In this document: positions 4,740 to 24,160 of the stretch, piece by piece
Layout of the letters: each line of letters opens with the position of its first letter
How positions within the stretch are numbered: position 1 is the first letter of the stretch
NCBI GenBank assembly: GCA_045614105.1
Contig: JAZLCF010000080.1
Location: 1-34,433, forward strand
From: Alphaproteobacteria bacterium
GTDB lineage: Bacteria; Pseudomonadota; Alphaproteobacteria; CAAHEQ01; UBA3637
DNA: 34,433 bases
Direction: 5' to 3'
Notes under the pieces: generated by a model
What the model saw: only the letters and a program-made list of their open reading frames with translations
What the model was told of the DNA's origin: nothing
Database searches by the model: none
Translations under genes and position numbers: made by a program

Positions 4740-6518
4740 ATGTTTCGCAAACTTAAAAATATGAACTTTGTTGTCAATTATAAACGCATGTGGCCTTTTG
4801 TTCGGCCTTTTTGGTTTCGTGCGATACTCAGTCTTATTATTACGATTCCAATCGGATCCTTGGACGCTGTTATTGCCTTAGCGCTTAAACCCTTTATGGA
4901 TACAGTTGTCATTGAACAAAATGGGGCAACTCCATGGAATCTACCCCTTTACATCATTCCTATTTTAATTATTGGTTTTACCGTTGTACAAGGTATCCTA
5001 GAATACGGTTCGGCTTATTTAAACACGTGGGTTGGTGGAAAAATTACACAAGAATTACAACGCAAACTTTATGCCAAATTAATGCAAATGGAGCAAACTT
5101 TTTTTGATTCCAGAACATCTGGCGAGTTAGCACAACGCTTTCACGCAGATCCTGGCACAGCTTGTGCTGGTTTGCTCACAAATTTAAAAACATTTACAAC
5201 ACGCATTTTTTCGTCCATTACTTTAATTGGTGTTCTATTTTATACTTCGTGGCAACTCGCCATCATTGCTATTGTTGTTTTAGGTGGGGCTTTATGGCCT
5301 TTAGCAGGCATTCGTCGACGTATCAAAGACGTTGTAAAAAAATCAGTAGCCGTCGGTGCCGCAAGTTTTACTATTTTCAATGAAACACATGCTGGTGCTA
5401 AAACGATTGCCTCGTACAATTTACAAGAATATAAGCGTCGTCAATTTGGAGAAATTCTGCGTCAAGGTTTCAGATTAAGCATTAAAAACACTCAACGTAC
5501 GGCTTGGCTATCTCCCATGATGCACATCGTGATTTCTGTTGGAATTGCGGGGGCAATTTGGTATGGCTCGTATTTGATTACTTCAAAGCAAATGACAGCA
5601 GGTGATTTTGTAGCGTTTATGACCTCAATGCTGATGCTCTATACCCCCATTAAGAATATTGGAAAAAACTTCACACAAGTTCAATTTTCTTTTATGGCCA
5701 TTGAACGCGTTTTTGCCATATTGGATTATGACGTACCTATTAAAGATAAAAAGGATGCGGTGGAAATGCACACGATAAGACACAATATCGTTTTCCATGA
5801 TGTCTCCTTTGAATACAAGCCTCATACCCCCATTTTGAAGCACATCAATCTAACGATTGAAAAAGGTAAGACAGTGGCTTTTGTTGGTAATTCTGGGGGG
5901 GGAAAGAGCACGATTGTCAGTTTGATTCCACGTTTTTATGATGTTAAATCAGGATCTATCACCATTGATGAGACAGATGTACGTGATTTTACTCTACACT
6001 CTCTCAGGCAAAACATTGGCATGGTGTTTCAGGATAATTTTTTATTTTCTGGCACTATTCGGGACAACATTTTGCTGGGTAAATTTAATGCAACAGAAGC
6101 TGAAATCAACCGCGCAGTGAAATCTGCCTGTTTAGAAGAATTTATCCACGACCTGGAAAATGGTTTGGACACCCCTATTGGAGAACGTGGCACTTTGCTT
6201 TCAGGTGGTCAACGTCAACGTGTCGCCATTGCACGTGCCTTTTTGAAAGATGCGCCCATCGTCATTTTAGATGAAGCCACCTCTGCTTTAGATAACAAAT
6301 CCGAGGGCATTGTCCAACAGGCCATTGATAACCTGATGCAAGACAGAACAGTTCTCGTGATTGCACACCGTTTATCCACTATTCAAAATGCAGATAAAAT
6401 TGTTGTGATCAATGAGGGTGAGATTGTGGAAGAAGGCACACATGATCAACTTTTGCAAAAAAATGGCGCCTATGCAGCCCTTTATAATGCCCAATTTAAG
6501 AAAAAGGCAATCAGCTAA
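4740..6518 (+). CDS. ABC transporter, fused permease/ATP-binding protein (MsbA/lipid exporter-like)
   Basis: 592 aa. N-terminal 6-TM ABC exporter domain; NBD with Walker A GNSGGGKST, signature LSGGQRQR and Walker B IVILDEATSALD. Confidence 0.9.
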   Translation: MFRKLKNMNFVVNYKRMWPFVRPFWFRAILSLIITIPIGSLDAVIALALKPFMDTVVIEQNGATPWNLPLYIIPILIIGFTVVQGILEYGSAYLNTWVGGKITQELQRKLYAKLMQMEQTFFDSRTSGELAQRFHADPGTACAGLLTNLKTFTTRIFSSITLIGVLFYTSWQLAIIAIVVLGGALWPLAGIRRRIKDVVKKSVAVGAASFTIFNETHAGAKTIASYNLQEYKRRQFGEILRQGFRLSIKNTQRTAWLSPMMHIVISVGIAGAIWYGSYLITSKQMTAGDFVAFMTSMLMLYTPIKNIGKNFTQVQFSFMAIERVFAILDYDVPIKDKKDAVEMHTIRHNIVFHDVSFEYKPHTPILKHINLTIEKGKTVAFVGNSGGGKSTIVSLIPRFYDVKSGSITIDETDVRDFTLHSLRQNIGMVFQDNFLFSGTIRDNILLGKFNATEAEINRAVKSACLEEFIHDLENGLDTPIGERGTLLSGGQRQRVAIARAFLKDAPIVILDEATSALDNKSEGIVQQAIDNLMQDRTVLVIAHRLSTIQNADKIVVINEGEIVEEGTHDQLLQKNGAYAALYNAQFKKKAIS

Positions 6519-6577
6519 AATACATACAATTTTGAACGAATAAGCCAGAAAACTCTTTTCTTTTTTATTTTTTTAAG

Positions 6578-6606
6578 TTGCATTTTTAAACACGCTTTTA
6601 TATAAT
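6578..6606 (+). promoter_or_regulatory. Putative sigma70 promoter TTGCAT-N17-TATAAT
   Basis: TTGCAT at 6578-6583, 17-nt spacer, TATAAT at 6601-6606, directly in front of the Cys-rich ORF. Confidence 0.45.
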
Positions 6607-6611
6607 CGTTT

Positions 6612-7046
6612 TTGGATCAGGTGAATAATAGCTGTTATCTTGTAGGAACAAACCAACCTCATGGCAGAGGCATTCATGGTAACTGTGAATGTAAAAACAT
6701 GAAAAACAATCAATGTCTTTGTCCAGAAAATACGATGTGGAGTACGTCATGGCAACGATGTGAGGCATGCACGAATAGGGATACTTGGAGGGCAACAACA
6801 GAAATATATAAGCATAGTTGCTTGGAACAGATGTATTACTTGGATAGTGGAAGCTTATATGGCTGTCTTTCTTCTCCTAATACAGGTTCAGAAGCATCTG
6901 GTGCCGATGAGTTATCTTGCAAAGAATGCAAAAACAGTGAAGGCGTAAAGAATCGTTGTTTTGATGCGAACAACGACAATACCTGCCGCTTGGTTGGCAA
7001 TGGGTATGCTAGAGATAGTGAAGGCAACTGTGTCAGTACACAATAG
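6612..7046 (+). CDS. Hypothetical cysteine-rich protein (14 Cys in 144 aa; start codon uncertain, TTG 6612 / GTG 6621 / ATG 6699)
   Basis: Long ORF in an otherwise non-coding gap. CxC and CxxC pairs and a repeated C-x-LVG-x(8-12)-GNC unit. No recognisable Sec signal. Own promoter-like element. Confidence 0.5.
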   Translation: MDQVNNSCYLVGTNQPHGRGIHGNCECKNMKNNQCLCPENTMWSTSWQRCEACTNRDTWRATTEIYKHSCLEQMYYLDSGSLYGCLSSPNTGSEASGADELSCKECKNSEGVKNRCFDANNDNTCRLVGNGYARDSEGNCVSTQ

Positions 7047-7058
7047 TCCTTTTTTCAC

Positions 7059-7087
7059 TTGATTTTTGGCCTAAAATTTGGTATGCT
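7059..7087 (+). promoter_or_regulatory. Putative sigma70 promoter TTGATT-N17-TATGCT
   Basis: TTGATT at 7059-7064, 17-nt spacer, TATGCT at 7082-7087, upstream of dnaE. Confidence 0.4.
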
Positions 7088-7110
7088 TGCGGGCAAATAA
7101 AGGATGCCTG

Positions 7111-10100
7111 ATGTTAGAGCCAAAATTCATCCATTTACATGTGCATACTGCCTACTCATTGCTGGAAGGCGCGATTAAAATGCCGAAGTTAGCGGCGTGG
7201 GCAAAAGAGCACAAAATGCCAGCGATTGCCGCCACAGACACAGGCAACATTTGTGGGGCGATGGCAATGATGCATGAGATGCCACCGTTGGGTATTCAAC
7301 CGATTTTGGGCACACAGTTATTGGTCAAATCCCCGAAAAAAAACAAAAACCAATTTTCAGATGAAGCGGACACCTTTGATAAAGTGGTGTTTTTGGTGCA
7401 AAATGAAGCGGGATACAAAAACCTCCTCAAATACTTTTCCAAATACTATATGGACAAGACAAAACAAGGCACGCCGCACCTAACCTTTGACGAAATTTTG
7501 GAACATACAGAAGGACTGTTGTTGTTGACTGGTGGGGTGGAGGGTTTATTGGGCCGCCCGTTATTAGCTGGACAAAAAGAGTGGGCCGAAAAGATTACCG
7601 AAAAATTACAAGCGGCGTATCCGAATCGGTTGTATATTGAATTACAACGCCACGGCACCGAGCAAGAACAAGCCACCGAACAAGGCTTTATTGATTTGGC
7701 GTATAAATGCAATATTCCACTTGTGGCCACCAATGATGCCTATTTTTTAACGCCAGATATGTACGAAGCGCATGATGCATTATTGTGTATTGCAGATAAA
7801 ACTTTTGTAGCAGAGCAAAATCGCCGTCGTGTGACACCCGAACATTATTTGAAAACCGAGGAGGAAATGTGCACGCTGTTTGCCGATATTCCCGAGGCAT
7901 TACAAAATACTGTACAAATTGCGAAACGTTGTGCGTTTATGGCCGAAAAGAAAAAACCAGCCTTCCCGAACTTTGATTGTAAAGGCAAAACAGAAGATGA
8001 AGTGTTGGCTGAAATGGCCGAAAAAGGCTTTAAAGAGCGTATGAAAGGCCGTTCGCCCGAAGAACAAGAAAAATATCACAAACAGATGGAATTTGAGCTG
8101 GGCGTGATTAAGCAAATGGGCTTTCCAGGGTACTTTTTAATTGTGGCGGATTTTATTCAATGGTCCAAAGCTCATGGAGTTCCTGTTGGCCCCGGACGTG
8201 GATCAGGCGCTGGTTCGGTTGTGGCCTGGTGTTTGACAATCACAGATATTGACCCCATGCGTTTTGATTTAGTGTTTGAGAGATTCTTGAATCCAGAACG
8301 TGTGAATATGCCCGATATTGACGTGGATTTTTGTCAGGAAAAACGCGAAAAAACCATTGAATATGTGCAAAATCATTATGGCTTTGATCATGTGGCACAA
8401 ATCATTACCTTTGGTAAATTGCAGGCAAAAGCCGTGATTCGTGATGTGGGACGCGTACTTCAGATTCCTTATCCTGTAGTGGACAGACTGTCTAAACTGA
8501 TTCCAGCCGACCCAAAAATGACGCTGGAAAAAGCATTTGATCAAGAACCTAAAATCAAAGAGGAAATTGAAAAAGATGAAGCGGTGAAATACCTGTTTGA
8601 AATTGCCGTAAAATTGGAAGGGCTGTATCGCAACACTTCCACACACGCGGCGGGCGTTGTGATTGGCAATAAACCGTTGGACGAGATTGTCCCCGTTTAT
8701 AAAGACCCCTCCTCTGATATGCCGGTCACACAGTACGATATGAAATATGTGGAAGAGGCAAGTTTAATCAAGTTTGACTTTCTGGGTTTAAAGACTTTGA
8801 CCACCATTAAAAAGGCCATTGAACTCATCAACAAACGCGGCATTGAGGTGGATATTGACCACATTCCATTGGATGATGAGGAAACTTTTAAATTGTTGCG
8901 CAGAGCCGATACAACGGGTGTGTTCCAATTGGAATCAACAGGTATGAAAAAAATCTTGCACGATATGCAACCTGATAAAATTGAAGATATCGTCGCTTTG
9001 GTATCGCTGTATCGGCCGGGCCCAATGGATTCAATTCCAACCTATATTAAAGTGAAAAAAGGCGAGGAAAAACCCGATTATATGCACCCGATGTTAGAGC
9101 CGATTTTAAAGGAAACTTACGGCATTATGATTTATCAAGAACAGGTGATGCAAATTTCCCGTGTAATGGCCGATTTTACTTTGGGTGGCGCGGATTTATT
9201 ACGCCGGATTATGGGCAAGAAAAAGGCCGAGTTATTACCGCCTGAACGCGAAAAATTTATTAAGGGAGCCAAGGCCAAAGGCGTGGATGAAAAAGTGGCC
9301 AATGCTGTGTTTGATAAAATGGCCAAGTTTGCTGAATATGGCTTCAATAAAGCCCATGCAGCGGCATATGCCTTTATTGCCTATCAAACAGCATATTTAA
9401 AGGCACACTATCCTGTGGAATTTATGGCCGCCACGATGACGCTAGATAAAATCAACACGGACAAGTTGGCCTTTTTCAAAAACGATTTACACCAAAATGG
9501 ATTCAAAGTTTTGCCCCCAGACATCAACAAATCCGAGGTGGATTTTACCGTAGAAGATGGCGCTGTCAGATATGCCCTTTCTGCCGTTAAAAATGTGGGC
9601 GAAGATGGTATGAAAATGGTGGTAGAAGAACGAAATAAAAATGGCCTTTTTAAATCTATGGAGAACTTTTTACAACGTGTAGATGTCAAAGCTCTGAATA
9701 AACGCTATGTGGAAAATTTGGCAAAGTCGGGGGCATTTGAATGCTTGGAACCAAATCGTGCCTACCTATTCAATAATGTGGAAAAAATGGTGGCCTATGC
9801 CGCAGATCAAACAGCCACCAAAAATAGTGCACAGATGGGATTGTTTGGGGCGGATACTTCGGCAAACAAACTAAAACTGGACAAATGTCCAGAATGGCCC
9901 CAAATGGAAAAATTGGAACACGAAAAAGAGGCATTAGGCTTTTATTTATCCGCTCACCCACTGGATTCTTTCCAAGCGGTATTGGAGCGTATGCGCGTGG
10001 TGGATTACGCGGATATCCCCGCTATGGTAAAAGCGACAGGCGTCTTCAGAGGCAAGATTGCCGGCGTTGTTGCCAATGTGCGCGAACGAATCAGTCAAAA

Positions 10101-10602: not shown

Positions 10603-11751
10603 ATGGAATTACAAGAATACCATGTCAAACGTATTTTTAAAAAGGCCGGATTACCTGTTCTAAAAGGAGATGTGGCCTATTCTCCCAATGAAGCCACAAT
10701 GATTGCGGGAAAGATTGGGAAAGGGCCTTATTTTTTAAAAGCTCAAACAGTGGATGGGAACAATTGTTATGGCACATTATTGACGCCTGGCGCTCGTGTC
10801 AACGGATGCGCCTGCGTTCTGGATAAGTCAGAGGTGGCAGAAGTGGCTACTTCCTTTTTGGGGCATCCCGATTGGTTAAAAAATGCCTCACCTTTATTTG
10901 AGATTCAAAAACTGTACGTAGAAGAAGGACTGATGGAAGCACAAGTTCTGGGATCTCTTATTTTTCGGGTCAATTTTGAAAAACAATGTGCTTTTTTAAC
11001 CGTTGCACCCACCAACAAAAAGGAAATTTCTTTTGAACTCAAAAACGGTTTAACGCCCGATATTTTAACGAAAGCGGCCTCAGCTTTTAGCAAACAGGCG
11101 GCCACCGAAATGAAACACCTGATGGAACAAGCATATCGTTTATTTCAGCACTACAAGGCCGTTGCGGTGGAATTAAGGCCCATTGTTCAATTAAAAAACA
11201 AAGAGTTGCGCGTGTTGGATGGACGCTTGGTTTTTGATCCAAACACAATGCATTTGTTGCCTGAATTAGTGCCGCTGATTGAATCACGTGTTGGTAAAGA
11301 GCGCGAACAAATTGCGCGTCAAAATCATTTTCGTTATATGGGCTTAAAAGGAAATATCGCGTGTGTTGTCAATGGTATTGGATTGGGCTGGGCAACGGTA
11401 GATTTAATTCAGCGCAAGGGAGGCAAAGCGGGCGCCTTATTAGATATTGGCACATGGCCTACAAAGGAAACGGTGACAAAAGCATTACGGTTGGTTTTGT
11501 CCGAACCCAATACGGATGGAGTCTTAGTCAATATTTTTGGTGGCTCTACGCGTTGTGATTTAATCGCGGAAGGCTTGATTGCCGCCTCACCAGAAATTGC
11601 CGCAGGCTTACCTTTGGTCATCAGAATGGATGGGATGAACGCCGCGGATGGACAACGCTTATTGTTTGAATCCCATTTACCCTTTATTGTCAAAACAAAA
11701 ATGGATGAAGCGGTACGTGCTATTATCAAAGAAACAAAGGAGAGACGTTGA
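10603..11751 (+). CDS. Succinate-CoA ligase beta-subunit (SucC) family protein, divergent and probably non-catalytic
   Basis: 382 aa, colinear with SucC (MELQEYHVKRIFKKAGLP.., NGIGLGWATVD, VNIFGGSTRCDLIAEG). The ATP-grasp phosphate loop AGGRGKAGGV is replaced by DGNNCYGTLLTPGARVNGCA; EINPL becomes ELRPI; DVGGGA becomes DIGTWP. Confidence 0.75.
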   Translation: MELQEYHVKRIFKKAGLPVLKGDVAYSPNEATMIAGKIGKGPYFLKAQTVDGNNCYGTLLTPGARVNGCACVLDKSEVAEVATSFLGHPDWLKNASPLFEIQKLYVEEGLMEAQVLGSLIFRVNFEKQCAFLTVAPTNKKEISFELKNGLTPDILTKAASAFSKQAATEMKHLMEQAYRLFQHYKAVAVELRPIVQLKNKELRVLDGRLVFDPNTMHLLPELVPLIESRVGKEREQIARQNHFRYMGLKGNIACVVNGIGLGWATVDLIQRKGGKAGALLDIGTWPTKETVTKALRLVLSEPNTDGVLVNIFGGSTRCDLIAEGLIAASPEIAAGLPLVIRMDGMNAADGQRLLFESHLPFIVKTKMDEAVRAIIKETKERR

Positions 11752-12623
11752 TGTTTTTTTTGCCAACCAAGGAAACACCTATTTTATGTCAAGGAATTAC
11801 AAGCAATGCTGGTGCTATACACACCGAACTCGCTTTAGCATATGGCAGCAATATTGTTGCAGGAACCAGTGCGGACAAAAATGTCAAACAGTTTTTGGGT
11901 GTTCCTGTCTTTCAAACTGTGGCAGACACTGTGCGCGCCAAAGCACCTCAAGTCAGCGTTATTTTTTCCACACCTGTCCATGCTTTAAAAGATGTACAAG
12001 AAGCTATTTTAGCAGGTCTTAAAATGGTCGTTTGTATTACCGAACATGTCCCCATGCACGACGCACTAAAAATGAAGACTTTGGCCGAAGAAAAAGGCGT
12101 TTGTTTATTGGGGCCATCGTCCATGGGCATTGGTGTGATGGGGCAAACGATGATTGGCTCTATTCCCCTGCACCTATTTCCAAAAGGTAAAATCGGCCTA
12201 CTGGGTCGTTCAGGATCTTTGATGTGGGAGGCAGCAGAACAACTGGCCTCTGTCGGATTAGGTGTTTCTTGCATCATTTCTTTAGGTGCCGACCATTTAA
12301 TAGGCACTTCCTTCGTCCCCCCAGTCAAGGCTTTGTTGGCCGATAATCAAACACAAGGGATTTTGGTCATTGGACAAGTACATGGTGAGTTGGAATACGA
12401 ACTGGCACATTTTTATAAAAAACAAAAAAACAAAAAGCCCCTGTGGGTCTATATCCCAGGCCGCAGTTTGGAAAAATCAGAAAAACGTCCTTTATTAGGA
12501 ATGCAGACAGTCAAATTCGCAGATGTTATAGAAACTAAAAAAAATGCTCTGGCTGAAGCTGGTGCTCTTTGGATTGACAGTCCTGACACTTTTGGAAAAA
12601 CTTTAAAAAAGGATCAGAAATGA
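11751..12623 (+). CDS. Succinate-CoA ligase alpha-subunit (SucD) family protein lacking the catalytic histidine
   Basis: 290 aa, colinear with SucD (ILCQGITSNAG, GRSGSLMWE). The GHAGAI phosphohistidine segment reads LLGMQT (His to Leu). TGATG stop/start overlap with the SucC-like gene. Confidence 0.75.
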   Translation: MFFLPTKETPILCQGITSNAGAIHTELALAYGSNIVAGTSADKNVKQFLGVPVFQTVADTVRAKAPQVSVIFSTPVHALKDVQEAILAGLKMVVCITEHVPMHDALKMKTLAEEKGVCLLGPSSMGIGVMGQTMIGSIPLHLFPKGKIGLLGRSGSLMWEAAEQLASVGLGVSCIISLGADHLIGTSFVPPVKALLADNQTQGILVIGQVHGELEYELAHFYKKQKNKKPLWVYIPGRSLEKSEKRPLLGMQTVKFADVIETKKNALAEAGALWIDSPDTFGKTLKKDQK

Positions 12624-13156
12624 CTTTAACAGAGGCAATCATTGTCAGGATAAGCCACGATTTAGCAGGTGCTATAGGTGCTTTTGCCAATACGGTGGAT
12701 TTAATGAAAATGGATGCCTCTTTTATTGGAGAATCAATTGATTTACTAGATACAAGCGCTCATCAATTGACTGCTCGTTTGGCTTTTTTCCGCGCTTTAT
12801 TTGGTGCCGAAAGTAAGTCTATTGACACCAGTTTAATACATAATTATTTGGACACATTAGCGATTTCTGTGAACTTCCAAGGGGAACTGCAAACACGGCT
12901 TCAGTTAGCACTGGTTGCCGTTGGTCTGGAATTATTGGGAACAGGGGGTAGTTTACAGCTATCCGACAAAACATTATTGATAACCTGCCCTGATTTAAAT
13001 CCAAATCCTTTATTGGTCCAAGCCTTAATGGACACCAAGGTACCCTGTGATCCAAAACTTGTGACCACATTATGGTTGGTCCATCTTGCACAAGAAGCCC
13101 ATTTAAGTATTCATCTGGATACAAATGAAAACAAAATCACGCTTTCTTTAACTTAA
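12620..13156 (+). CDS. chpT: ChpT-type histidine phosphotransferase (CckA-ChpT-CtrA relay)
   Basis: 178 aa. ISHDLAGAIGAFANTVDLM ... SAHQLTARLAFFRALFGA matches the ChpT DHp-like helices including the phosphorylatable His. ATGA overlap with the SucD-like stop. Confidence 0.8.
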   Translation: MTLTEAIIVRISHDLAGAIGAFANTVDLMKMDASFIGESIDLLDTSAHQLTARLAFFRALFGAESKSIDTSLIHNYLDTLAISVNFQGELQTRLQLALVAVGLELLGTGGSLQLSDKTLLITCPDLNPNPLLVQALMDTKVPCDPKLVTTLWLVHLAQEAHLSIHLDTNENKITLSLT

Positions 13157-13231: not shown

Positions 13232-13624
13232 ATGACTGACAAACAAAAGTATTACCCCGAATTAAACGGTAAATGTGATTTTCCCAAAATGGAAGAGGAA
13301 GTCTTAAAACATTGGGATGAAAATCATATTTTTGAAGCGGTAAAAGATGCACGCAAAAATGGAGATGAGTTTGTGTTTTATGATGGCCCGCCCTTTGCAA
13401 ACGGACAACCACATTATGGTCATATTTTTGTCTCATATGTTAAAGATGCCGTGGCTCGTTTTCAAACCATGTTGGGCAAGAAGGTGGAACGCCCCTATGG
13501 TTGGGATTGCCATGGTTTGCCAGCGGAAATGAATGCCGAAAAAGCCTTGGGTATCTCGGGACACAAAGCCATTAAGAATACGGTGTGGATAAGTTTAACA
13601 ATTTCTGCAAAGAATCGGTGTTAA
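13232..13624 (+). CDS. ileS: Isoleucine-tRNA ligase (type 2), N-terminal fragment up to the frameshift near 13576
   Basis: HIGH motif PHYGH and GWDCHGLPAE. Homology ends at ..GISGHKAIK (13574-13576); the remaining 16 codons are out of frame. Confidence 0.9.
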   Translation: MTDKQKYYPELNGKCDFPKMEEEVLKHWDENHIFEAVKDARKNGDEFVFYDGPPFANGQPHYGHIFVSYVKDAVARFQTMLGKKVERPYGWDCHGLPAEMNAEKALGISGHKAIKNTVWISLTISAKNRC

Positions 13625-16344
13625 AATATTCTGGTGATTTTGTGGATTTATTTCACCGAATGGGGCGTTGGATTGATCCAACTTTGGAATATCGAACCAT
13701 GGATTTACCCTTTATGGAATCGGTGATTCAAAACTTTAAGGCGTTGTATGACAAAGGTTTAATCTATCAAGATTACCGTGTGCAACCCTATTCTTGGGCA
13801 GCACAGACGGTATTGTCCAATTTTGAGGTGAATCAGCCTGGTTGCTATCGTGATAAAGTTGATACCGCTATCACGGTGATGTTCAAATTGGAAAATGGCA
13901 TGCATTTATTGGTATGGACGACAACACCATGGACGCTTTTTTCTAACCAAATGATTGCGGTTGGCGAGGATATTGATTATGCCGTGATGGAGGAAAACGG
14001 TGGAAAATATGTACTGGCCGAAGCTTTAAAAGGTAAATATGCCAAACAGTTAGAGAATGCCGTACAAGTGGCCACAATGAAGGGATCCGAATTGGTGGGC
14101 ATGTCCTATGAACCCATGTTTCCACATTTTGCCGCCCTAAAAGAAAAAGGTTGTTTTAAGGTCTTGGCTGGTGATTTCGTGTCTATTGAAGATGGTACTG
14201 GTATGGTCCATATTGCGCCAGGATTTGGTGCAGACGACTTTGATGTATGTCGTAAATATGATGCGCATTTCCCGATTGTTTGTCCAGTGGATGAGGCTGG
14301 GTGTTTTACTGCCGAGGTGCCAGAAGTTCAGGGAAAACAAGTATTTGATGCCAATGAATATGTGTTGAATTATTTAAAAGAACATCGTTTGTTGGTGAAA
14401 AAAGAGCAAATTACACATACTTATCCGTATTGTTGGAGAACAGATACACCATTGATTTATAAAGCCATGTCTGGTTGGTTTGTGGATGTACCGAAATTCC
14501 GTGAAGAATTGTGTCAGTTGAATCAAACGATTACATGGACACCGGAACACATTAAAGATGGCCGTTTCGGCAAGTGGTTAGAGGGTGCCCGTGAGTGGTC
14601 TATTTCCAGAACACGTTATTGGGGGGCGCCAATTCCTGTATGGCAATCGGACAACCCAAAATATCCGCGGACAGATGTGTTCGGTTCTGCCGCTGAAATC
14701 AAGAAAAAAACGGGGTGTGATGTGACAGATTTGCATCGTCCGCTCATTGATCAGGTGGTTTATCCGAATCCAGACGATCCCTCGGGTCAATCTATGATGC
14801 GTCGTGTGCCAGATGTGTTTGATTGTTGGTTTGAATCGGGTTCTATGCCGGAAGGTCAGATCCATTATCCGTTTGAGAAAAAAGAATGGTTTGATAATCA
14901 TTTTCCGGCCGATTTCATTGTGGAAGGCGTTGATCAAACACGCGGATGGTTCTATTCTTTACACGTGTTGGGAACGGCTTTGCATCATAAACCCGCATTT
15001 AAGCATTGTATGGTGACGGGCTTGGTAATGGCCGAAGGTGGCGTCAAAATGTCCAAAAAATTGGGCAATTACCCAGATCCTTACATTATCTTGAATTCTT
15101 CCGGTTCGGACGCAATGAGATGGTTTTTGTTGTCCTCATCCATTGTCCATGGCGGCAATGTGTATATGGATGCACAGGGGAAAGAGGTCTCCAAGGCTAT
15201 GCGTAAAGCTGTGTTGCCCTTTTGGAATGCCTATTATTTCTTCTGTCTGTATGCTAATGCAGAAGGTGTCAAAGCCAATATGACAACATCCGCTACGGAC
15301 GTATTGGATCGGTATATTTTGGGTAAATTAAAGAATTTAACACAAAAGGTTAAAGCCGAAATGGCGGATTATGACATGCCGGCTGCTGCTGAGAATTTGG
15401 CGGATTTCTTGGATATTTTAAACAACTGGTATATTCGTCGTTCACGTGAACGTTTCTGGGATGGTACCGATCAAAAGGCCTTTGATACATTGTACACAGT
15501 GTTGGTCACCTTGGCCAAGATTATGGCACCTTTGATGCCATTCTTGACAGAAACAGTTTATCGTGGCTTGACGGGTGAAAAATCTGTGCATTTAGCAGAT
15601 TGGCCCAATGTGAATGCATTGACAGATGAAGCCAAGTTGATTGAACAAATGGACTTTGTGCGGGCGATTTCTTCCACAGCAAAGGCTATTCGTGAGGAAA
15701 ATCATTTGCGCAATCGTTTGCCACTTTCTAAGATGACGATTGCAGGTGAACAAGCAAACACTTTGACTGATTTTGTGGAATTATTAAAAGACGAAGTCAA
15801 TGTCAAAGAGGTTATCTTTAATACAGATGTGGCTGCGGTGGCCGATAAATTCTTGTATTTGAAAACGCCTTTGATTGGTAAGCGTTTGGGATCTGCTATG
15901 GGAGCTATTATGACCGCCAGCAAGCAAAATCAATGGACCGTCAATTCCGATGGAACTTTGGCAATTGCAGGACAAACACTCAATGCTGATGAATTTGAAT
16001 TGCGCTTAAATATGAAAGAAGGATTCAAAGGTCAACCATTGTCAGATAACCGTGCTGTTGTGCAATTAGACGTTGAAGTCGTTCCCGAACTGGAACGCGA
16101 GGGTGTTGCCCGTGACTTTGTGCGTATGGTGCAACAACTGCGCAAAGACAAGGGATTTGATGTATCTGACAGAATCACACTGACTTGGACATCCGACTCT
16201 ACCTTGGTCAAGGAAGCGTTTAAAGAACATGCTGCTTATATTGCTGAACAAGTGTTGGCCACGACATTTGTTGAAGGCGCAGGTTCTGACAAAACCGAAG
16301 AACTAGGCGACAGACAAGTATCCTTTGCCATTCAAAAAGTATAA
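13585..16344 (+). CDS. ileS: Isoleucine-tRNA ligase (type 2), main body in the -1 frame (frame open from 13576)
   Basis: Continues EYGVDKFNNFCKESVLKY... with WCISRTRYWG-like WSISRTRYWGAPIP and KMSKKLGN (KMSKS). 919 aa as listed. Confidence 0.9.
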   Translation: MDKFNNFCKESVLKYSGDFVDLFHRMGRWIDPTLEYRTMDLPFMESVIQNFKALYDKGLIYQDYRVQPYSWAAQTVLSNFEVNQPGCYRDKVDTAITVMFKLENGMHLLVWTTTPWTLFSNQMIAVGEDIDYAVMEENGGKYVLAEALKGKYAKQLENAVQVATMKGSELVGMSYEPMFPHFAALKEKGCFKVLAGDFVSIEDGTGMVHIAPGFGADDFDVCRKYDAHFPIVCPVDEAGCFTAEVPEVQGKQVFDANEYVLNYLKEHRLLVKKEQITHTYPYCWRTDTPLIYKAMSGWFVDVPKFREELCQLNQTITWTPEHIKDGRFGKWLEGAREWSISRTRYWGAPIPVWQSDNPKYPRTDVFGSAAEIKKKTGCDVTDLHRPLIDQVVYPNPDDPSGQSMMRRVPDVFDCWFESGSMPEGQIHYPFEKKEWFDNHFPADFIVEGVDQTRGWFYSLHVLGTALHHKPAFKHCMVTGLVMAEGGVKMSKKLGNYPDPYIILNSSGSDAMRWFLLSSSIVHGGNVYMDAQGKEVSKAMRKAVLPFWNAYYFFCLYANAEGVKANMTTSATDVLDRYILGKLKNLTQKVKAEMADYDMPAAAENLADFLDILNNWYIRRSRERFWDGTDQKAFDTLYTVLVTLAKIMAPLMPFLTETVYRGLTGEKSVHLADWPNVNALTDEAKLIEQMDFVRAISSTAKAIREENHLRNRLPLSKMTIAGEQANTLTDFVELLKDEVNVKEVIFNTDVAAVADKFLYLKTPLIGKRLGSAMGAIMTASKQNQWTVNSDGTLAIAGQTLNADEFELRLNMKEGFKGQPLSDNRAVVQLDVEVVPELEREGVARDFVRMVQQLRKDKGFDVSDRITLTWTSDSTLVKEAFKEHAAYIAEQVLATTFVEGAGSDKTEELGDRQVSFAIQKV

Positions 16345-16410: not shown

Positions 16411-17538
16411 CTAACCTCCGCTACCCAGCCCCATACCTGCCGTCATTTGGTCTTGCATTTCAAAGGTACCCCAAACGGTCCATGCCAAGAATGCAGCAAT
16501 AAACAAAATAGCCGCACCATTTAAGATACCCGCAATAGACTCAATCTGACGAATAGAATTTTCCAACCAGCTATTGGCCAAATTTTCCAACGCCTCTGGG
16601 AAAGTATCCAATTCCGCATAAATACGCAAATCTCCAATAATTTCATCATCTGGAAATTTCAGGTGGGTATGATACAAAGCCTCGCCTAAGTTATCACCAT
16701 TATTGACGTACATTAAAGCTCGCACCACGCGGAATTTTAAATAAGGTGACGCACCCTCATCTGCCAAAGCACGCATAGCTTTGGACACAGGCATTCCTGC
16801 ACGCACCAAAGCCGACAAAGAAAGCAACCAGCTGACACCAATAAAAATACGATAAATTGACCACGGTGGAATATTATCCACTTTCGCCCGTGATTTACCA
16901 CTCCAATATGGAAAAGAAATCAAACAAACAATCACAAGGACTGGCACAATAGAAAAAAGCAGCAACGGATGATGATCCACAAATTCAGACAGATTAACCA
17001 ATGCTTTTGCATAACCGCGCCACACCAATCCTGGCACAGCTTCCACCATCGGTGGCACCATATATTTCGCCACAGCCCATACAAGCAATGTGGAGGCAAA
17101 AATCAAGAATAAAGGATAGGAAACAGCACCCCACACTAAAGAACGCATTTTATTCATTCCCTCCACCACACGAACTGTGTGTTGCAAAGCCAAATCCAAC
17201 GCTGCCACGTCACCCACGGACAACATCAAAATTTCGGTGTTTGGCACCCAGCCACTCAATGCCTCTGAAAACGTGCTACCATTTCGGATACTTTGCATCC
17301 AAAAAGCCGTTGCAATCGCTGTAGAATCATCTGGCTTTTGTCCATCCTTAGAGGCAATAGAATATAATCGCTCCAACGCATCCATCAAAGAAAAACGGTT
17401 TCTTAAAAGAGCCATCAATTTCCGATAAAGTTCCAACCGATCTGAGGCATAAATTCGCATTGAAAACCGTGCATACCAAATATTGATGATATTTGTTTTC
17501 AATGATTTTTCCATTGCTTGTTTAACATGATTATCCAT
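16411..17538 (-). CDS. Type IVb pilus/T2SS platform protein (GspF family; R64 PilR / TcpE / BfpE-like)
   Basis: 375 aa polytopic membrane protein with two GspF-like repeats and the size typical of T4b platform proteins. AGGAG RBS. 15 nt after the ATPase gene. Confidence 0.8.
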   Translation of the reverse strand: MDNHVKQAMEKSLKTNIINIWYARFSMRIYASDRLELYRKLMALLRNRFSLMDALERLYSIASKDGQKPDDSTAIATAFWMQSIRNGSTFSEALSGWVPNTEILMLSVGDVAALDLALQHTVRVVEGMNKMRSLVWGAVSYPLFLIFASTLLVWAVAKYMVPPMVEAVPGLVWRGYAKALVNLSEFVDHHPLLLFSIVPVLVIVCLISFPYWSGKSRAKVDNIPPWSIYRIFIGVSWLLSLSALVRAGMPVSKAMRALADEGASPYLKFRVVRALMYVNNGDNLGEALYHTHLKFPDDEIIGDLRIYAELDTFPEALENLANSWLENSIRQIESIAGILNGAAILFIAAFLAWTVWGTFEMQDQMTAGMGLGSGG

Positions 17539-17553
17539 TTTAAAACTCCTTGT

Positions 17554-19521
17554 TTAATTTAAATTCAATTGATCCAAAAATCCAGTCCATCTTTCAACTT
17601 CTTCTATATCAATCAATCCTTGGAACATTCGCGCCAAAGCGTTTTCTCTTAATGTACGCCCATTCAAGTCATTAATCCAATAGTTTTGAGCCTTTTGTAC
17701 CTCTCCTTTTAAAATAAGATTCAAAAAGGTCGAGTCAGGCAAAATAAACTCAGCCACAGCGGTACGCCCACTGACCCCTCTAAAATTACATTCTGCACAA
17801 CCAAGACCTCTTAAATAGGCATACTCCAGTCCCACATCCCCAAAGGCACTACGCAACCGTTGAACAGCAGGATTGTCCAAATGTTCCTTAGCCGGAATAC
17901 GACAAACAGGACACAGTTTTCTGAATAAACGTTGAGCCAACATGCCACGCATAATCGTTGGATCCTGCAACTTAAAATCTTCAACGCCCATATCCTTTAA
18001 ACGGAGTAAAATCGCGCTGGCTGTATTCGCGTGCAAAGTTGTCCACACATTATGCCCAGACAAGGCGCCACGGAAAGCCAAATCCGCTGCCGACAAGGTT
18101 CGAATTTCTCCGATCATCAACGAATCGGGGTCTGAACGCAAAGCTGCTGACAGGGCTTTGGTAAATTCCCTATCCTTTGCCTCTTCAATCCCTGCATTCG
18201 TCACAGGCATTTGCCGCGCCCCTGGAATCGGATATTCTGGCGGATCTTCCACGGTAATCAGGTTGGTCTCATAATTACGTTCTTTCAACATCGCAATCAT
18301 ATTGCGCTGTAAGGTCGTAGATTTCCCCGAACCCGTTGGCCCTGACACAATAATAATCCCAGTTGGAATTGCCCTTAATTGATAAAAAAGATCCGTATCC
18401 CTTTTGGAAAAACCAAGCTCTAACAATGCCGCTTCTGGATTAGAAGTTGATTCATCAGCATATAATAAACGCATCACCACATAACGTGTACCAAAGGCAA
18501 TCGGGTTAAATTGCAAACGAATACCCAAGATATTTTTTGGCAAAACCAAACGACCACCAGATCCACGCAATGGGGTACGCCCTAATTTTTGTGCCGCCTG
18601 ATACTCATTTTGAGCATAGTTTGAATCTGAAATATCCGATGACGCAAATGCTGCACGCACAAAACTTTCGCCCCATTCGCGATTATATTCCATTTCTGTT
18701 TGCATCAAACCATTCACACGAAACATAACGGTTGTATGATCCGCCACAACGATATGAATATCTGACACCTGATTCATTGCCGCCCGAGAAACAACTGTCA
18801 CAAAATCGCGCTGCATACGCGTTTGCTCTTGATTTTCCTCATCTGTAAAAGTTTGATCTGCCGCATGTAATTGGGAGGCATAATCATAAATATCTTTTAA
18901 AAGTTCTTTGGATACATATTCAGGTTGGCCTAATTGCAAACGCCGTTTTTTGGCCAAATATTCAAAACCCAACACACGCCCATCATATTTAGCATCTTCC
19001 ACAACAAAAAAACGACCATTGGAAAATAACGCCAATAATTCGCGCGTTTGATCACTGGCAGGAAATGCCCCAGAAGGCAAAGTTATACACTCATTACCAT
19101 TTGAATATAATTCTTTCAGCAAAGCCTTTCTAGAACGGTGTTCATCATCTTCCTCTTCTTCGGGAACTTGATTATTTGAAGAAGGCGTCTCTTGATGAGG
19201 CTCAGACGCCGGAATTTCTGACTTTTGCTCTGGCTGAGGCTGTTGCTCGGAAACAACCGACTCCTGCACAGGAACATCTGGAGCTCCTTCTTGATCTTGA
19301 TCCGTTACTTGTGCACCTTGTTTTGCAGGATAATCTTTTAAACTGGTCAAAACCTCGGATAAAGGAACCTGGGGACTTAAAATCTGATCCGCTGTGGCCA
19401 TATTATCAGGGGCAGAAGTTTCAGAATCTTCAACCAAATCCAAAGATTGGAAATCTTGATCCTTTGTATCTTCTGCCTCTTGTTCTTTTGGTGGCTCAAC
19501 AGGCTTCTCAGTAGTTTCCAT
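17554..19521 (-). CDS. Type IV pilus/T2SS assembly ATPase (GspE/PilB family; R64 PilQ-like) with acidic N-terminal extension
   Basis: 655 aa. Walker A GPTGSGKSTT, Walker B DSLMIGEIR, His box GHNVWTTLHAN, tetra-Cys motif CPVCRIP..GCAECNFRG. The first ~130 aa are E/D/Q/P-rich low complexity. Confidence 0.9.
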   Translation of the reverse strand: METTEKPVEPPKEQEAEDTKDQDFQSLDLVEDSETSAPDNMATADQILSPQVPLSEVLTSLKDYPAKQGAQVTDQDQEGAPDVPVQESVVSEQQPQPEQKSEIPASEPHQETPSSNNQVPEEEEDDEHRSRKALLKELYSNGNECITLPSGAFPASDQTRELLALFSNGRFFVVEDAKYDGRVLGFEYLAKKRRLQLGQPEYVSKELLKDIYDYASQLHAADQTFTDEENQEQTRMQRDFVTVVSRAAMNQVSDIHIVVADHTTVMFRVNGLMQTEMEYNREWGESFVRAAFASSDISDSNYAQNEYQAAQKLGRTPLRGSGGRLVLPKNILGIRLQFNPIAFGTRYVVMRLLYADESTSNPEAALLELGFSKRDTDLFYQLRAIPTGIIIVSGPTGSGKSTTLQRNMIAMLKERNYETNLITVEDPPEYPIPGARQMPVTNAGIEEAKDREFTKALSAALRSDPDSLMIGEIRTLSAADLAFRGALSGHNVWTTLHANTASAILLRLKDMGVEDFKLQDPTIMRGMLAQRLFRKLCPVCRIPAKEHLDNPAVQRLRSAFGDVGLEYAYLRGLGCAECNFRGVSGRTAVAEFILPDSTFLNLILKGEVQKAQNYWINDLNGRTLRENALARMFQGLIDIEEVERWTGFLDQLNLN

Positions 19522-19538
19522 ACATTCCTTCTTACAGA

Positions 19539-20384
19539 TTAAACATCATCAAAAATCAAAGCAATTTTCTGACCATCTTTATTCAAAATAACCTGTGTTG
19601 CAGAAATAGACTCTACACGACTTCCATCCGTCAACTCATCTCCAATCTGAACACTTGAAACACGGCCAGAATCAACACTTTTCAGGCGAGCATTGAGCAT
19701 ACCTCGTGTACCAGTTATATCTACAATTTCATAGTTCTTAACCACTTTATCGCTGGCAGCAGCATCCGCCTCAGATGCGCCTTCATCGGTATTCTCTGGC
19801 TCAATCACTGTGGCAGAAGTCCCTTGGCCAGCCTTAGCAGCCTCCAAAGCAGCCCGTTGTTTTTCCAAATCTTGGCGCACCTTTTCCTGTTCTTGCCACC
19901 ACTGAATACGGGTCCGAACCACATCTTCGCGCTTGGCAATTTCATCCAACCGATCTTGGCGGTATCTTGCCCGCAATTTTTCCAAATCATTTTTCATCGT
20001 TTCCTTTTGGATTTGCAACTTCAAAAAGGTATTATCACGCTCCAACTCAGCCATCTCCTTAAAGACTTCTGGCGTCAACATACCAATCAACCTTTCGCTA
20101 GGCATATCCTTGGCAGAAACAGAAGCCGCCAAAGGCAAAGGCCCATTGATATCTGTTTCATAAATTCCAGGCAATGGTGCCAATTCCAACGAATCTAGCG
20201 AGGTTCGCGCAGGGAAATCCACCGCTTGCTTATCCGACAAATCAGGCGTATTATCCATCTCCTGTCCAACAGCCATAGACTCCTCTTCTGGCAACAGGAA
20301 ATCCTCAGCCTCCTGTGCCTGAACGGCAACGGCCATCAACAGCCCACCTAAACACACAATTTGGTATAAAAATTTATTTTGCAT
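19539..20384 (-). CDS. PilP-family type IVb pilus biogenesis protein with long coiled-coil insert
   Basis: Start at ATG 20384 (GGGAGG RBS); signal peptide MQNKFLYQIVCLGGLLMAVAVQAQ. The C-terminal ..ARLKSVDSGRVSSVQIGDELTDGSRVESISATQVILNKDGQKIALIF resembles the PilP beta-domain. Central ELERDN..EAAKAG is coiled coil. Confidence 0.7.
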   Translation of the reverse strand: MQNKFLYQIVCLGGLLMAVAVQAQEAEDFLLPEEESMAVGQEMDNTPDLSDKQAVDFPARTSLDSLELAPLPGIYETDINGPLPLAASVSAKDMPSERLIGMLTPEVFKEMAELERDNTFLKLQIQKETMKNDLEKLRARYRQDRLDEIAKREDVVRTRIQWWQEQEKVRQDLEKQRAALEAAKAGQGTSATVIEPENTDEGASEADAAASDKVVKNYEIVDITGTRGMLNARLKSVDSGRVSSVQIGDELTDGSRVESISATQVILNKDGQKIALIFDDV

Positions 20385-21693
20385 AAATCCTCCCTTCATA
20401 TTTCCATTTTGTTGTTGTATCATTCGACGGATTATACTCTATTTTAGAGAGCTCAAATCCCGAAAATTTTTCGAAAAACTTTATCCACTCCCACGGCGTG
20501 TAATCAGAGTTTGTGGAAAACGAAAAATAGGTATATGTTTTTTGACTTGCGGGACGAGATCCATCTGGATTGGTCGGTGGATCCAACATCGTTTGTTGTG
20601 AAAATTGGAAGCCTAAGCCCGTCATTTGTTGAATCTCAGTCAAATCCTCTTGTAATTCTTTAACAGACAATGTGGGCATAGAAGCAATTGTCGGCAAATC
20701 TTTGAAAGTAATAGAAGCAGAGGCCGTTGACGGATTATTTGTATCCACAGTCAACTCAGTGAATTGGTACTCCTTGACACCAAAACGCAACCATGACAAC
20801 AAACCTTCCCGACCACTTTTTGTCCAATTCGTTTTGATTCCTTCCGAATTACAAGTAATCAACCCCAATCTCCAACCAGGAAATGACACCGATTTAATCT
20901 GATAAATATCATTCCAACAAGCGCGAATCAAAGCATTAACCTCTGTCAATTGTTCCCATGGCTTTGGCTTTTCTGGCTCTGGCGCAACAGGCTGAATAAC
21001 CTGAGGCGTTTGAACGGGCTGAATAACCTGCTTTGGCGTCAAATTCTTCCACAATCCTACCAAGGCATACACTAATGCAATCAAGGCAATGACAATAATG
21101 GCAGCAATAAAAATTAAGAAATAGGTTTTTCTGGCGGCATTGATATCCTGCAAACGCACCTTCATACCCTTGCGCGTCAAACTGGACAAAGAATCTTGCT
21201 GAGTTCCCTCCATGCCCCATTCTTCTGGCACAATCTTGACATCCCAATCTGGCACAGCCATCATAGAGGCATAGGCACGTCTGGCGTCCTCTTCTGTCTC
21301 AAACAAAACGTCCTCTTCTGCCAAAATCAAATTATTGCGGGCCGCAACAAACCACCAACCCTCTTTTACCTTGAAAACAGCACAAAAAGATTCATGTGCC
21401 GCCAAAGCTTCAGCCACAGATGCAGCCAAAGAAGGCATCCCATTACGATGACCCATAGAACTGTGCCCAATACCATACTGAGCGACACTTGTTTGTCGAT
21501 AACAATATAAATCAGCACCTGGCTCGCTGGCAACAGTTTCTTTAATTTCCGTTAAAGGATCATCCAAATTTTGAACAGGTTGCCACGTCAATCCAACGGC
21601 ATAACTTTGCCCATCAACGCCCACAACCCCACGTCTAATCGGTGGGGATTGTGTTTCATTGGATGTTGGAACCGTGTTCTCGTTGTCTGCCAT
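20374..21693 (-). CDS. PilO-family (PAP_PilO / PilO2-like) type IVb pilus accessory protein
   Basis: 439 aa. N-terminal cytoplasmic domain with ..GQSYAVGLTWQP.., a single central TM (TYFLIFIAAIIVIALIALVYALVGLW) and a periplasmic C-terminal domain. Position between the secretin and PilP as in R64. Confidence 0.65.
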   Translation of the reverse strand: MADNENTVPTSNETQSPPIRRGVVGVDGQSYAVGLTWQPVQNLDDPLTEIKETVASEPGADLYCYRQTSVAQYGIGHSSMGHRNGMPSLAASVAEALAAHESFCAVFKVKEGWWFVAARNNLILAEEDVLFETEEDARRAYASMMAVPDWDVKIVPEEWGMEGTQQDSLSSLTRKGMKVRLQDINAARKTYFLIFIAAIIVIALIALVYALVGLWKNLTPKQVIQPVQTPQVIQPVAPEPEKPKPWEQLTEVNALIRACWNDIYQIKSVSFPGWRLGLITCNSEGIKTNWTKSGREGLLSWLRFGVKEYQFTELTVDTNNPSTASASITFKDLPTIASMPTLSVKELQEDLTEIQQMTGLGFQFSQQTMLDPPTNPDGSRPASQKTYTYFSFSTNSDYTPWEWIKFFEKFSGFELSKIEYNPSNDTTTKWKYEGRIYAK

Positions 21694-21702
21694 ATTAAAC
21701 CT

Positions 21703-23328: not shown

Positions 23329-24160
23329 TATCATCCTCCTGTGTATTGATAACTAGCACACGGTTGCCCTTATAGAACGTGCCAATTGGTGCGGGTACAG
23401 CACGCGCAAAGGTGCGAATAATTGCGCTTGCCACTTCGACAAAGTTTCCACGGAACACAACGCCCGCCTCCAAAATGTAATCTCTGTCCAGTTTCCAAAC
23501 AACCGTCCAGCCGGACTTTTGCCCCCATTCAATCAGCAACGAACGCAAACTGTCGCCATTGTTGGCCTCCCAATCGTGAGCCGCTTCGCCATAGGCCAAC
23601 TTACCCCCGCGTTGATGCGCCGAAATAGACGGCATTTCCACATAAGGTGGTGTCACAGTTGTTTCTTTTCTGCGCGATGTTTTCACAATCGCCCCATCAG
23701 CCAATTGCTCTTGAGTGACATCACGTTCCATAATGAAGCTGCCCGTCTGAGTCTTATAAACAGCATATTCCGAGCCCAATTCCTCGTCATCATCCATTGG
23801 TTGAGTCACCGCCAACGGGGCAGCGGTATCACGCACAACAACTTGTTGCTGAGGCAACTCATAGCCCATACCAGGAACCACAAAATCTTGCCCAACCGTG
23901 GCTTGAATCGGCACATTTGGATTCATTGGATCAATATTGCCAGGATAAGCCGTGGGCACATAAGCACCTTGAGGATTGACTTGATAGTTCGCCCCACCAA
24001 GACCAGCGGATTGCTGAGCATACAAAGCAGCGCATTGCTCATTATTTGCATTCGGCCCTGTGCAATTGATAAAAATATCTTCAGCACGCACCTGTTCCGC
24101 CATCATCAGCGAAAAAGCAGCCACCAGTTGAATACCTAAATATAAATTTTGTTTCCCCAT
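23321..24160 (-). CDS. TcpQ-domain protein (PilL/TcpQ-like secretin-associated periplasmic protein)
   Basis: 279 aa. Signal peptide. C-terminal SLRSLLIEWGQKSGWTVVWKLDRDYILEAGVVFRGNFVEVASAIIRTF matches the TcpQ/PilL C-terminal domain pattern. Overlaps the secretin start by 8 nt. Confidence 0.7.
   Translation of the reverse strand: MGKQNLYLGIQLVAAFSLMMAEQVRAEDIFINCTGPNANNEQCAALYAQQSAGLGGANYQVNPQGAYVPTAYPGNIDPMNPNVPIQATVGQDFVVPGMGYELPQQQVVVRDTAAPLAVTQPMDDDEELGSEYAVYKTQTGSFIMERDVTQEQLADGAIVKTSRRKETTVTPPYVEMPSISAHQRGGKLAYGEAAHDWEANNGDSLRSLLIEWGQKSGWTVVWKLDRDYILEAGVVFRGNFVEVASAIIRTFARAVPAPIGTFYKGNRVLVINTQEDDNA

Follow-up and report, generated by a model that had tools for sequence, protein, structure and literature searches.

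A SucC/SucD-like pair without the catalytic phosphohistidine in a conserved operon with chpT of uncultured Alphaproteobacteria

What does a protein pair descended from succinyl-CoA synthetase (SCS) do in the operon of a cell-cycle phosphotransferase once it has lost the residues of its ancestral reaction? This question is raised by contig JAZLCF010000080.1 (assembly GCA_045614105.1) of an Alphaproteobacteria bacterium, of which positions 1 to 34,433 of the forward strand were analyzed (34,433 nucleotides with about 42% G+C; hereafter, the window). Three consecutive genes on this strand are concerned. First, a sucC-like gene (10603–11751, +) encodes a protein of 382 aa with the fold of the SCS beta subunit, a degenerate ATP-grasp lid and a conserved C-terminal CoA-ligase domain. 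Second, a sucD-like gene (11751–12623, +) encodes a protein of 290 aa with the fold of the SCS alpha subunit, but without its phosphohistidine. Third, chpT (12620–13156, +) encodes a short histidine phosphotransferase of 178 aa with the His box SHDLAG.

The three genes are chained by overlaps. The TGA stop codon of the sucC-like gene (11749–11751) overlaps the ATG of the sucD-like gene (11751) by 1 nt within the sequence TGATG (11749–11753, +), and the TGA of the sucD-like gene (12621–12623) overlaps the ATG of chpT at 12620 within the sequence ATGA (12620–12623, +). A Shine-Dalgarno sequence, AAGGAG, is located inside the sucC-like gene, 8 nt upstream of TGATG. The chaining of the three genes by these overlaps, which the original prediction had described, was borne out by the listing of open reading frames (ORFs) and by reading of the sequence. 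The trio is a single translationally coupled operon that is conserved in one lineage of uncultured Alphaproteobacteria. A TTG at 11748, which the ORF list gave as the start of the sucD-like gene, was rejected since all homologues begin with MFFLPT at the ATG. No CtrA box (TTAA-N7-TTAA) was found upstream of the operon, the two matches in the window being at chance level, and the scan for promoters and terminators returned a promoter-like site only before ileS.

The SucD-like protein retained the architecture of the alpha subunit. Pfam recognized CoA_binding and Succ_CoA_lig domains, and the protein aligned end to end with the NCBIfam model NF004230 (224.6 bits; cut-off of 336 bits) and scored 221.1 bits against TIGR01019 (cut-off of 353 bits). 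In a phmmer search of the Protein Data Bank (PDB), it matched SucD chains at about 1e-51. The AlphaFold2 (AF2) model built from the family alignment reached a predicted local distance difference test (pLDDT) score of 91.7, with low confidence only at the former His loop, and Foldseek superimposed it on SucD chains with a template modelling (TM) score of 0.85–0.90.

In the established catalytic cycle of SCS, phosphate has to be carried by His246-alpha from one site to the other, i.e., between the ATP-grasp and CoA/succinate sites. In the phmmer alignment with PDB chains, the segment GKRMGHAGAI of true SucD lies opposite SEKRPLLGMQT, which contains no His. The extent of this loss was determined by an audit in which positions conserved to at least 90% in 75 diverse true SucD sequences were compared with 116 members of the clade. 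The position of His246-alpha is occupied by Leu in a conserved PLLGM loop, and His is present in none of the 116 clade members as compared to 99% of the 75 true SucD sequences. Thus, the segment LLGMQT had been read correctly as being without His. The loop APxGxRMGHAGAI of true SucD has become L..S.K.PLLGM in the clade. The motif IGEIGG reads IGQVHG in the SucD-like protein, and Glu209 (Glu208-alpha of the mature protein), which is Glu in 99% of true SucD sequences, is Gln in 94% of the clade. The predicted change of GIGGDP to SLGADH was confirmed by the sequence comparisons, with the clade losing Gly177, Gly180 and Pro182 of this motif. In addition, Gly155 is lost, Thr156 is replaced by an invariant Ser, and Asn123 by Ser. 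The CoA-contacting residues Gly18, Pro41-Gly42 and Gly44-Gly45 (the PGKGG loop) and Val73-Pro74 are lost as well. Gln14, Gly15, Thr17, Gly21, Thr97, Glu98, Arg153, Ser154, Glu160 and most structural glycines are kept. Clade-specific invariant residues have newly arisen, namely PLLG, Ser123, Ser156 and Gln209 in the alpha-like protein and Phe116 in the beta-like protein.

A further clade-specific residue is the near-invariant His103 of the alpha-like protein in TEHVPMHD, which follows the ITEG motif of the CoA loop and replaces Leu of the E. coli sequence TEGIPTLD. It was considered as a relocated catalytic His and rejected because it is placed at the start of a predicted helix and not in a mobile loop, so that it could not substitute for the swinging loop.

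The SucC-like protein was found to be preserved unevenly. It contains the Pfam domains ATP-grasp_2 and Ligase_CoA (PF00549, E 1e-14) and was matched by NF001913 over its full length, as two stretches, with 226.2 bits (cut-off of 370 bits). Against SucC chains of the PDB, its C-terminal half scored 135 bits and its N-terminal ATP-grasp part 25 bits. Its AF2 model, also from the family alignment, had a pLDDT of 88.6 and a TM score of 0.82–0.85 to SucC chains in Foldseek. Thus, both proteins are full length and colinear with SucC and SucD, as had been predicted, with scores far below the equivalog cut-offs.

In the nucleotide-binding part of the SucC-like protein, AGGRGKAGGV is replaced by 'DGNNCYGTLLTPGARVNGC', EINPL has become ELRPI, and DVGGGA has become DIGTWP. 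An audit of 53 true SucC sequences against 82 clade sequences revealed that the lid residues Arg54, Gly55, Lys56 and Gly58 are lost, with a variable insert in their place. Glu107, Tyr109, Arg116, Ser126, Gly129, Gly130, Ile133, Glu134, Pro141 and Ile144 are also lost, and the Mg ligand Asn199-beta is kept in only 33% of the clade and is Arg in the protein of the window. Kept in the ATP-grasp domain are Lys46, Gln48, Glu99, Glu197, Pro200 and Asp213, and in the C-terminal domain nearly all conserved residues, including Asn264, Gly265, Gly267, Asp274, Asn317, Gly320, Gly321 and Arg348. While the replacement of the GGRGK loop and the altered EINPL and DVGGGA motifs stood as originally described, the nucleotide site is not wholly gone. 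Since Lys46, Glu99, Glu197 and Asp213 are kept, it is eroded rather than erased.

Comparison with curated SucC and SucD by hidden Markov models (HMMs) and by structure, which had been proposed as a check, confirmed the loss of both His246-alpha and the GGRGK lid. The pair is predicted to be incapable of the canonical SCS reaction for four reasons. First, the swinging phosphohistidine is absent. Second, its partner Glu208-alpha is Gln. Third, the ATP-grasp domain has lost its glycine-rich lid over the nucleotide together with one of its Mg ligands. Fourth, the loop holding the 3'-phospho-ADP of CoA is lost.

Such losses could be expected of decaying genes, and it was asked whether the pair belongs to a maintained family. 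In the protein database, the alpha-like protein has at least 120 cluster representatives at 51% identity or more, and the beta-like protein about 85; all named sources are metagenome-assembled genomes (MAGs) of uncultured 'Alphaproteobacteria bacterium'. The beta family is set apart by a score gap, with at least 231 bits inside the family and 149 bits for the best true SucC. The relatives are labelled 'CoA-binding protein', 'hypothetical protein' or 'succinate--CoA ligase subunit alpha'. All full-length loci examined have intact ORFs (27 loci in all, several of them ended by contig edges). Between loci, the proteins are 50–90% identical while synonymous sites are saturated. For the closest available loci, the synonymous divergence (dS) ranged from 0.9 to above 3 where it could be computed at all, and the nonsynonymous divergence (dN) was 0.06–0.5. 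The resulting dN/dS ratio (omega) was at most about 0.04–0.33 for all three genes; these values are upper bounds only, as dS was saturated in every available pair. The sucC-like, sucD-like and chpT genes are thus under purifying selection. The mean identity within the clade was 55–63% for the alpha domains and the C-terminal beta domain, 41% for the ATP-grasp domain and 21% for the former lid. Constraint is thus relaxed exactly at the former nucleotide site and maintained elsewhere.

The reading as decaying pseudogenes, or as a genuine SCS that was misaligned, is effectively refuted by these data. It would agree with the ileS frameshift beside the trio, by which one or more genes of the contig are disrupted or contain a sequencing error, and with the name 'succinate--CoA ligase subunit alpha' that NCBI has given to some relatives. 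However, decay is contradicted by the intact ORFs, the low dN at saturated dS and the confident AF2 models, and misalignment by the consistent placement of Leu at position 246 in HMMER, MAFFT and Foldseek alignments, with no other conserved His in the loop. The original view that the pair is retained, for which the dN/dS ratio had been suggested as a test, was therefore upheld. With both folds and the alpha/beta interface domain kept, the pair is predicted to form a folded heteromer that is descended from SCS and held by selection.

When 1.84 billion representatives were searched exhaustively with a profile, more distant His-less SucD-like groups came to light, which also derive from MAGs of Alphaproteobacteria and some members of which are called 'succinate--CoA ligase subunit alpha' by NCBI. 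In these groups, the His is replaced by Asn (MGNIGA) or by Tyr (MGYASD and GGYAGM), and an insertion in the beta lid is common to most of them. Distant His-less SucCD-like pairs were located in the loci L103 (3844–5873), L105 (3799–5876) and L104 (3841–5894); with 260–328 bits, they are nearer to true SucD. The pair of L104 is linked to chpT and ctrA, and those of L103 and L105 are not. The loss of the catalytic His may have been graded or repeated in this lineage.

The third gene was examined with respect to its assignment as ChpT with a conserved phospho-accepting His. The NCBIfam ChpT models NF046025 and NF046018 matched the N-terminal His-box region (E 3e-9 and 6e-9), with scores of 36.6 and 35.6 bits for this part only, as compared to equivalog cut-offs of 225 or 240 bits. 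PF10090 (HPTransfase) matched the C-terminal part below its cut-off (E 8e-4). A profile of six orthologues covered residues 46–238 of Brucella ChpT (4qpj), i.e., both domains, with E 7e-10, and matched Caulobacter ChpT with E of about 1e-4. Around the phospho-accepting His, ISHDLAG of the protein from the window aligned with ICHDIIS of Brucella ChpT. The orthologues show no variation at His13 of SHDLAG, which aligned with the H-box His, and a CA-like domain follows. By its sequence, the third gene is taken to be chpT, in line with the original assignment. The support for membership in the CckA-ChpT-CtrA pathway is genomic only, with ctrA adjacent in the relatives L102 and L104.

In order to determine if the linkage to chpT is unique to this contig, 16 loci (window included) were reached through the SucD-like protein, so that the sample was unbiased with respect to the neighbours. 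In 8 of the 16 loci, chpT is located immediately downstream of the pair (window, L005, L083, L085, L086, L088, L102 and L104). In four (L003, L084, L087 and L100), a receiver protein of 120–124 aa is encoded immediately upstream of the pair. The remaining four (L004, L101, L103 and L105) have neither neighbour. Reciprocally, a metagenome scan with an alignment of four ChpT sequences yielded 11 loci, and the sucD-like gene lies directly upstream of chpT in all 11, preceded by the sucC-like gene wherever the contig reaches. The linkage is thus not confined to the window. Of 26 His-less loci, 18 were positive with the ChpT profile, and so was the window. By contrast, none of 77 loci around true sucD, few of which are from Alphaproteobacteria, had a match to the profile at a distance of up to about 6 kb.

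The junctions are conserved as well. The overlap of 1 or 4 nt between the sucC-like and sucD-like genes, with AAGGAG upstream, is kept in nearly all related loci. The sucD-like/chpT junction is ATGA in 14 of 17 measured loci, while the rest have gaps of 0–11 nt or a 14-nt overlap; L104, in addition to these, has a 4-nt overlap.

The receiver of L003 matched Caulobacter DivK (1m5t) with E 3.5e-40, the next match being PleD with about 2e-21, and the receivers of L084 and L087 are 68–72% identical to it. These three are DivK orthologues. The receiver of L100, for which an NCBIfam scan was the only one made and named no DivK family, is called DivK-like because it agrees with the others in size and position and because of where its locus is placed. 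The junction between divK and the sucC-like gene is ATGA in L003 and L084 and TGATG in L087, while L100 has a small gap. In a neighbor-joining tree of the alpha-like proteins, chpT-linked loci are found on basal branches, and those linked to divK fall together in one derived subclade, the sister of which is the chpT- and ctrA-linked locus L102. This topology would fit an ancestral sucC-like/sucD-like/chpT operon that was later re-associated with divK.

In L102, the operon continues from chpT into a co-directional ctrA (5529–6254; 344 bits, cut-off of 350 bits). In L104, ctrA (6436–7125, −) is convergent to chpT and scored 353.6 bits, i.e., above the cut-off of 350 bits. In these two loci, ctrA, chpT and the pseudo-SucCD pair make up a compact cell-cycle locus.

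The trio persists across at least six different flanking contexts. It is flanked by dnaE and ileS in the window, L085 and L092, and by ileS downstream in L005. A diadenylate cyclase gene lies upstream in L083, L097 and L086, with a PFOR or an MCP-SpoIIE protein downstream. Further flanks are an ankyrin protein and RNase D (L088), an APH-like kinase (L099), and RadC and ctrA on either side (L102). The diadenylate cyclase (DAC/CdaA-like), which is encoded directly upstream of the operon in one subclade (L083, 3945–4811; L086, 3945–4847; L097, 8–640), hints at a connection to c-di-AMP.

Gene neighborhood may of course be uninformative about function. If the pair had a non-catalytic or other role apart from the phosphorelay, its position next to chpT would be inherited gene order and compact operon packing. 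This reading is unlikely, but it has to be taken seriously. It agrees with the four His-less loci that lack chpT and divK, with the conservation of the dnaE and ileS flanks in several loci, by which local synteny appears generally sticky, and with the origin of all loci from one broad lineage. It is opposed by the survival of the trio through at least six flank rearrangements, by the presence of divK, a gene of the same pathway, with an overlapping stop and start upstream of the pair where chpT is not adjacent, and by the joining of ctrA in two loci.

In the reading that we favour, with about even odds of being right, the pair encoded in the conserved operon is a non-catalytic partner of the phosphorelay, i.e., a scaffold or allosteric subunit, which possibly senses a ligand in the remnant cleft. 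The proposed sensor or scaffold role was deduced from the gene linkage. The heteromer would be made in fixed stoichiometry with ChpT and would act as a non-catalytic scaffold or allosteric subunit of the CckA-ChpT-CtrA/DivK phosphorelay. As such, it would set the amount of phosphate passed by ChpT to CtrA or CpdR or, where divK is the linked gene, the way in which DivK acts. The heteromer may be responsive to a small ligand that binds in what remains of the active-site cleft. As a speculation, the conserved new PLLG loop together with the intact alpha/beta cleft is a candidate for a new binding surface. In such a role, it would resemble KidO, GdhZ and CitA, the regulators of the Caulobacter cell cycle that are likewise derived from enzymes.

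Several points weigh against a partner of the phosphorelay. Operon membership can reflect co-expression only, and, as stated above, 4 of the 16 loci have neither chpT nor a receiver gene next to the pair. The related loci share ancestry, so the linkage counts are not independent events, and the linkage is partly a matter of common descent rather than independent evidence. The control with true sucD is weak because of the small number of Alphaproteobacteria in it. The version in which CoA is the sensed ligand is doubtful, as it is weakened by the loss of the PGKGG loop and of the CoA contacts Val72-Pro73 and Asn122-Cys123. Finally, residual or new chemistry would still be conceivable for the pair, since Lys46, Glu99, Glu197, Asp213 and the glycines of the succinate/phosphate site are kept.

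Such chemistry would make the pair a neofunctionalised enzyme. At the former site I, it would catalyze part of the old reaction or a new one, e.g., acyl-CoA + Pi <-> acyl-phosphate + CoA, and it would exchange the phosphoryl group in trans with ChpT (at its His) or DivK (at its Asp), by which the relay would be fed with a metabolic phosphodonor or drained. It is in agreement with this reading that the phosphate/succinate site is largely kept, namely Arg153-Ser154, Ser156 and Glu160 of the alpha-like protein and Asn264, Gly265, Gly267 and Gly320-Gly321 of the beta-like protein. Moreover, the lost parts, the His loop and the nucleotide lid, are exactly those carrying phosphate between the sites, and both linked partners, ChpT and DivK, are phosphoryl carriers. 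Transfer of phosphohistidine from nucleoside diphosphate kinase (NDPK) to SCS or ATP-citrate lyase, or in the reverse direction, has been reported in eukaryotes. However, the CoA-binding PGKGG loop, Val72-Pro73 and Asn122-Cys123 are lost, Glu208-alpha, by which the phosphohistidine is supported in site I, is Gln, and the His of ChpT is located on a helix bundle and not on a mobile loop. A neofunctionalised enzyme is therefore held to be improbable.

A radical form of it would be a 'split' SCS with an outsourced mobile phosphohistidine. In the remnant of site I, an acyl-CoA or related thioester plus phosphate would be interconverted with an acyl-phosphate. The phosphoryl group would be exchanged directly with ChpT (at its His) or, where divK is linked, with DivK (at its Asp). 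We regard this as a long shot. If it were true, the status of central carbon metabolism would put phosphate into the CtrA relay, or draw it off, without recourse to the kinase CckA.

Compared to known systems, the pair resembles SucCD of E. coli (2SCU/1JKJ) in its two full-length folds (TM scores of 0.82–0.90), in the order of beta before alpha with overlapping stop and start codons, and in the conserved C-terminal beta domain and interface residues. Unlike SucCD, it is without the phosphohistidine, has Gln for Glu208-alpha, and has lost the GGRGK lid, Asn199-beta and the PGKGG loop. Its genes stand beside chpT, or divK in relatives, and not in an operon of the tricarboxylic acid cycle, and its proteins score below the equivalog cut-offs. 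ChpT of the window shares with the Brucella (4QPJ) and Caulobacter (4FPP/4FMT) proteins the His box on the first helix and the profile similarity over the full length (DHp-like and CA-like), and ctrA is adjacent in relatives. Unlike the curated ChpT models (204–211 residues), it is about 30 residues shorter, scores far below the cut-offs and is co-translated with the SucCD-like pair.

KidO of Caulobacter crescentus is summarized in PMC7083601 (citing Radhakrishnan 2010) as a regulator that resembles oxidoreductases, binds NAD(H) and acts on both FtsZ and the CtrA pathway. Going by that summary, KidO and the pair have in common the fold of a metabolic enzyme, and KidO regulates the alphaproteobacterial CtrA/DivK circuit rather than acting as an enzyme. 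As far as that summary goes, KidO differs by its aldo-keto reductase-like fold, its single subunit, its discovery by genetics and a gene that does not share an operon with chpT; a regulatory function has been demonstrated for KidO, whereas that of the SucCD-like pair is one that we infer. The Caulobacter glutamate dehydrogenase GdhZ and citrate synthase CitA control cell-cycle transitions, CitA independently of catalysis (PMC7083601). The pair shares with them an origin from the Krebs cycle or central metabolism. Unlike GdhZ and CitA, which are still active and moonlight, it has lost catalytic residues and is encoded in the operon of a relay component.

Full-text literature searches returned no paper joining ChpT with SCS and no description of an SCS pseudoenzyme, in agreement with the original statement that such a module was not known to have been described. 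Enzyme-derived regulators of the alphaproteobacterial cell-cycle circuit are known already; an SCS-derived pair beside chpT or divK is new with respect to the literature searched.

With regard to the remainder of the window, polA', tlyA, gpsA, dnaX, msbA, an ORF of 144 aa and dnaE lie upstream of the trio. Downstream, ileS is followed by a type IV pilus cluster in the opposite orientation and then by genes for an EnvZ/OmpR-like two-component pair and for an antiporter of the arginine/ornithine type. The ORF of 144 aa between msbA and dnaE (6612–7046, +) had no match in Pfam or NCBIfam. The ileS region (13232–16344) is split into two overlapping ORFs (13232–13624 and 13585–16344) with a break near 13574–13585. 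A frameshift of 1 nt was located at '...gccattaagaatacggtg...', where the orthologue of L085 reads through as KAIDAYGVDKF. The break reflects an error of sequencing or assembly in a short run of A, or else an essential gene is disrupted here. The type IV pilus or type II secretion-like cluster (16411–24160, −) comprises GspF/PilC-like, GspE/PilB-like ATPase, PilP-family and PilN-family type IVB secretin proteins as well as several ORFs without family match. The sign of the GC skew changes at about 16 kb, where the gene strand switches.

The connectors known so far between central metabolism and the CtrA/DivK circuit of Alphaproteobacteria, namely KidO, GdhZ and CitA, were found singly by Caulobacter genetics. 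Here, comparative genomics alone indicates a whole family of Krebs-cycle-derived pseudoenzymes in the operon of a relay phosphotransferase or of DivK, in lineages that are host-associated, apparently anaerobic and uncultured. The labels 'succinate--CoA ligase subunit alpha' or 'CoA-binding protein' carried by the relatives would mislead the metabolic reconstruction of such MAGs. If the link is functional, the operon would encode three proteins through which a His-Asp phosphorelay is placed under the control of metabolism, and the pair would be the first SCS-derived pseudoenzyme within the literature searched.

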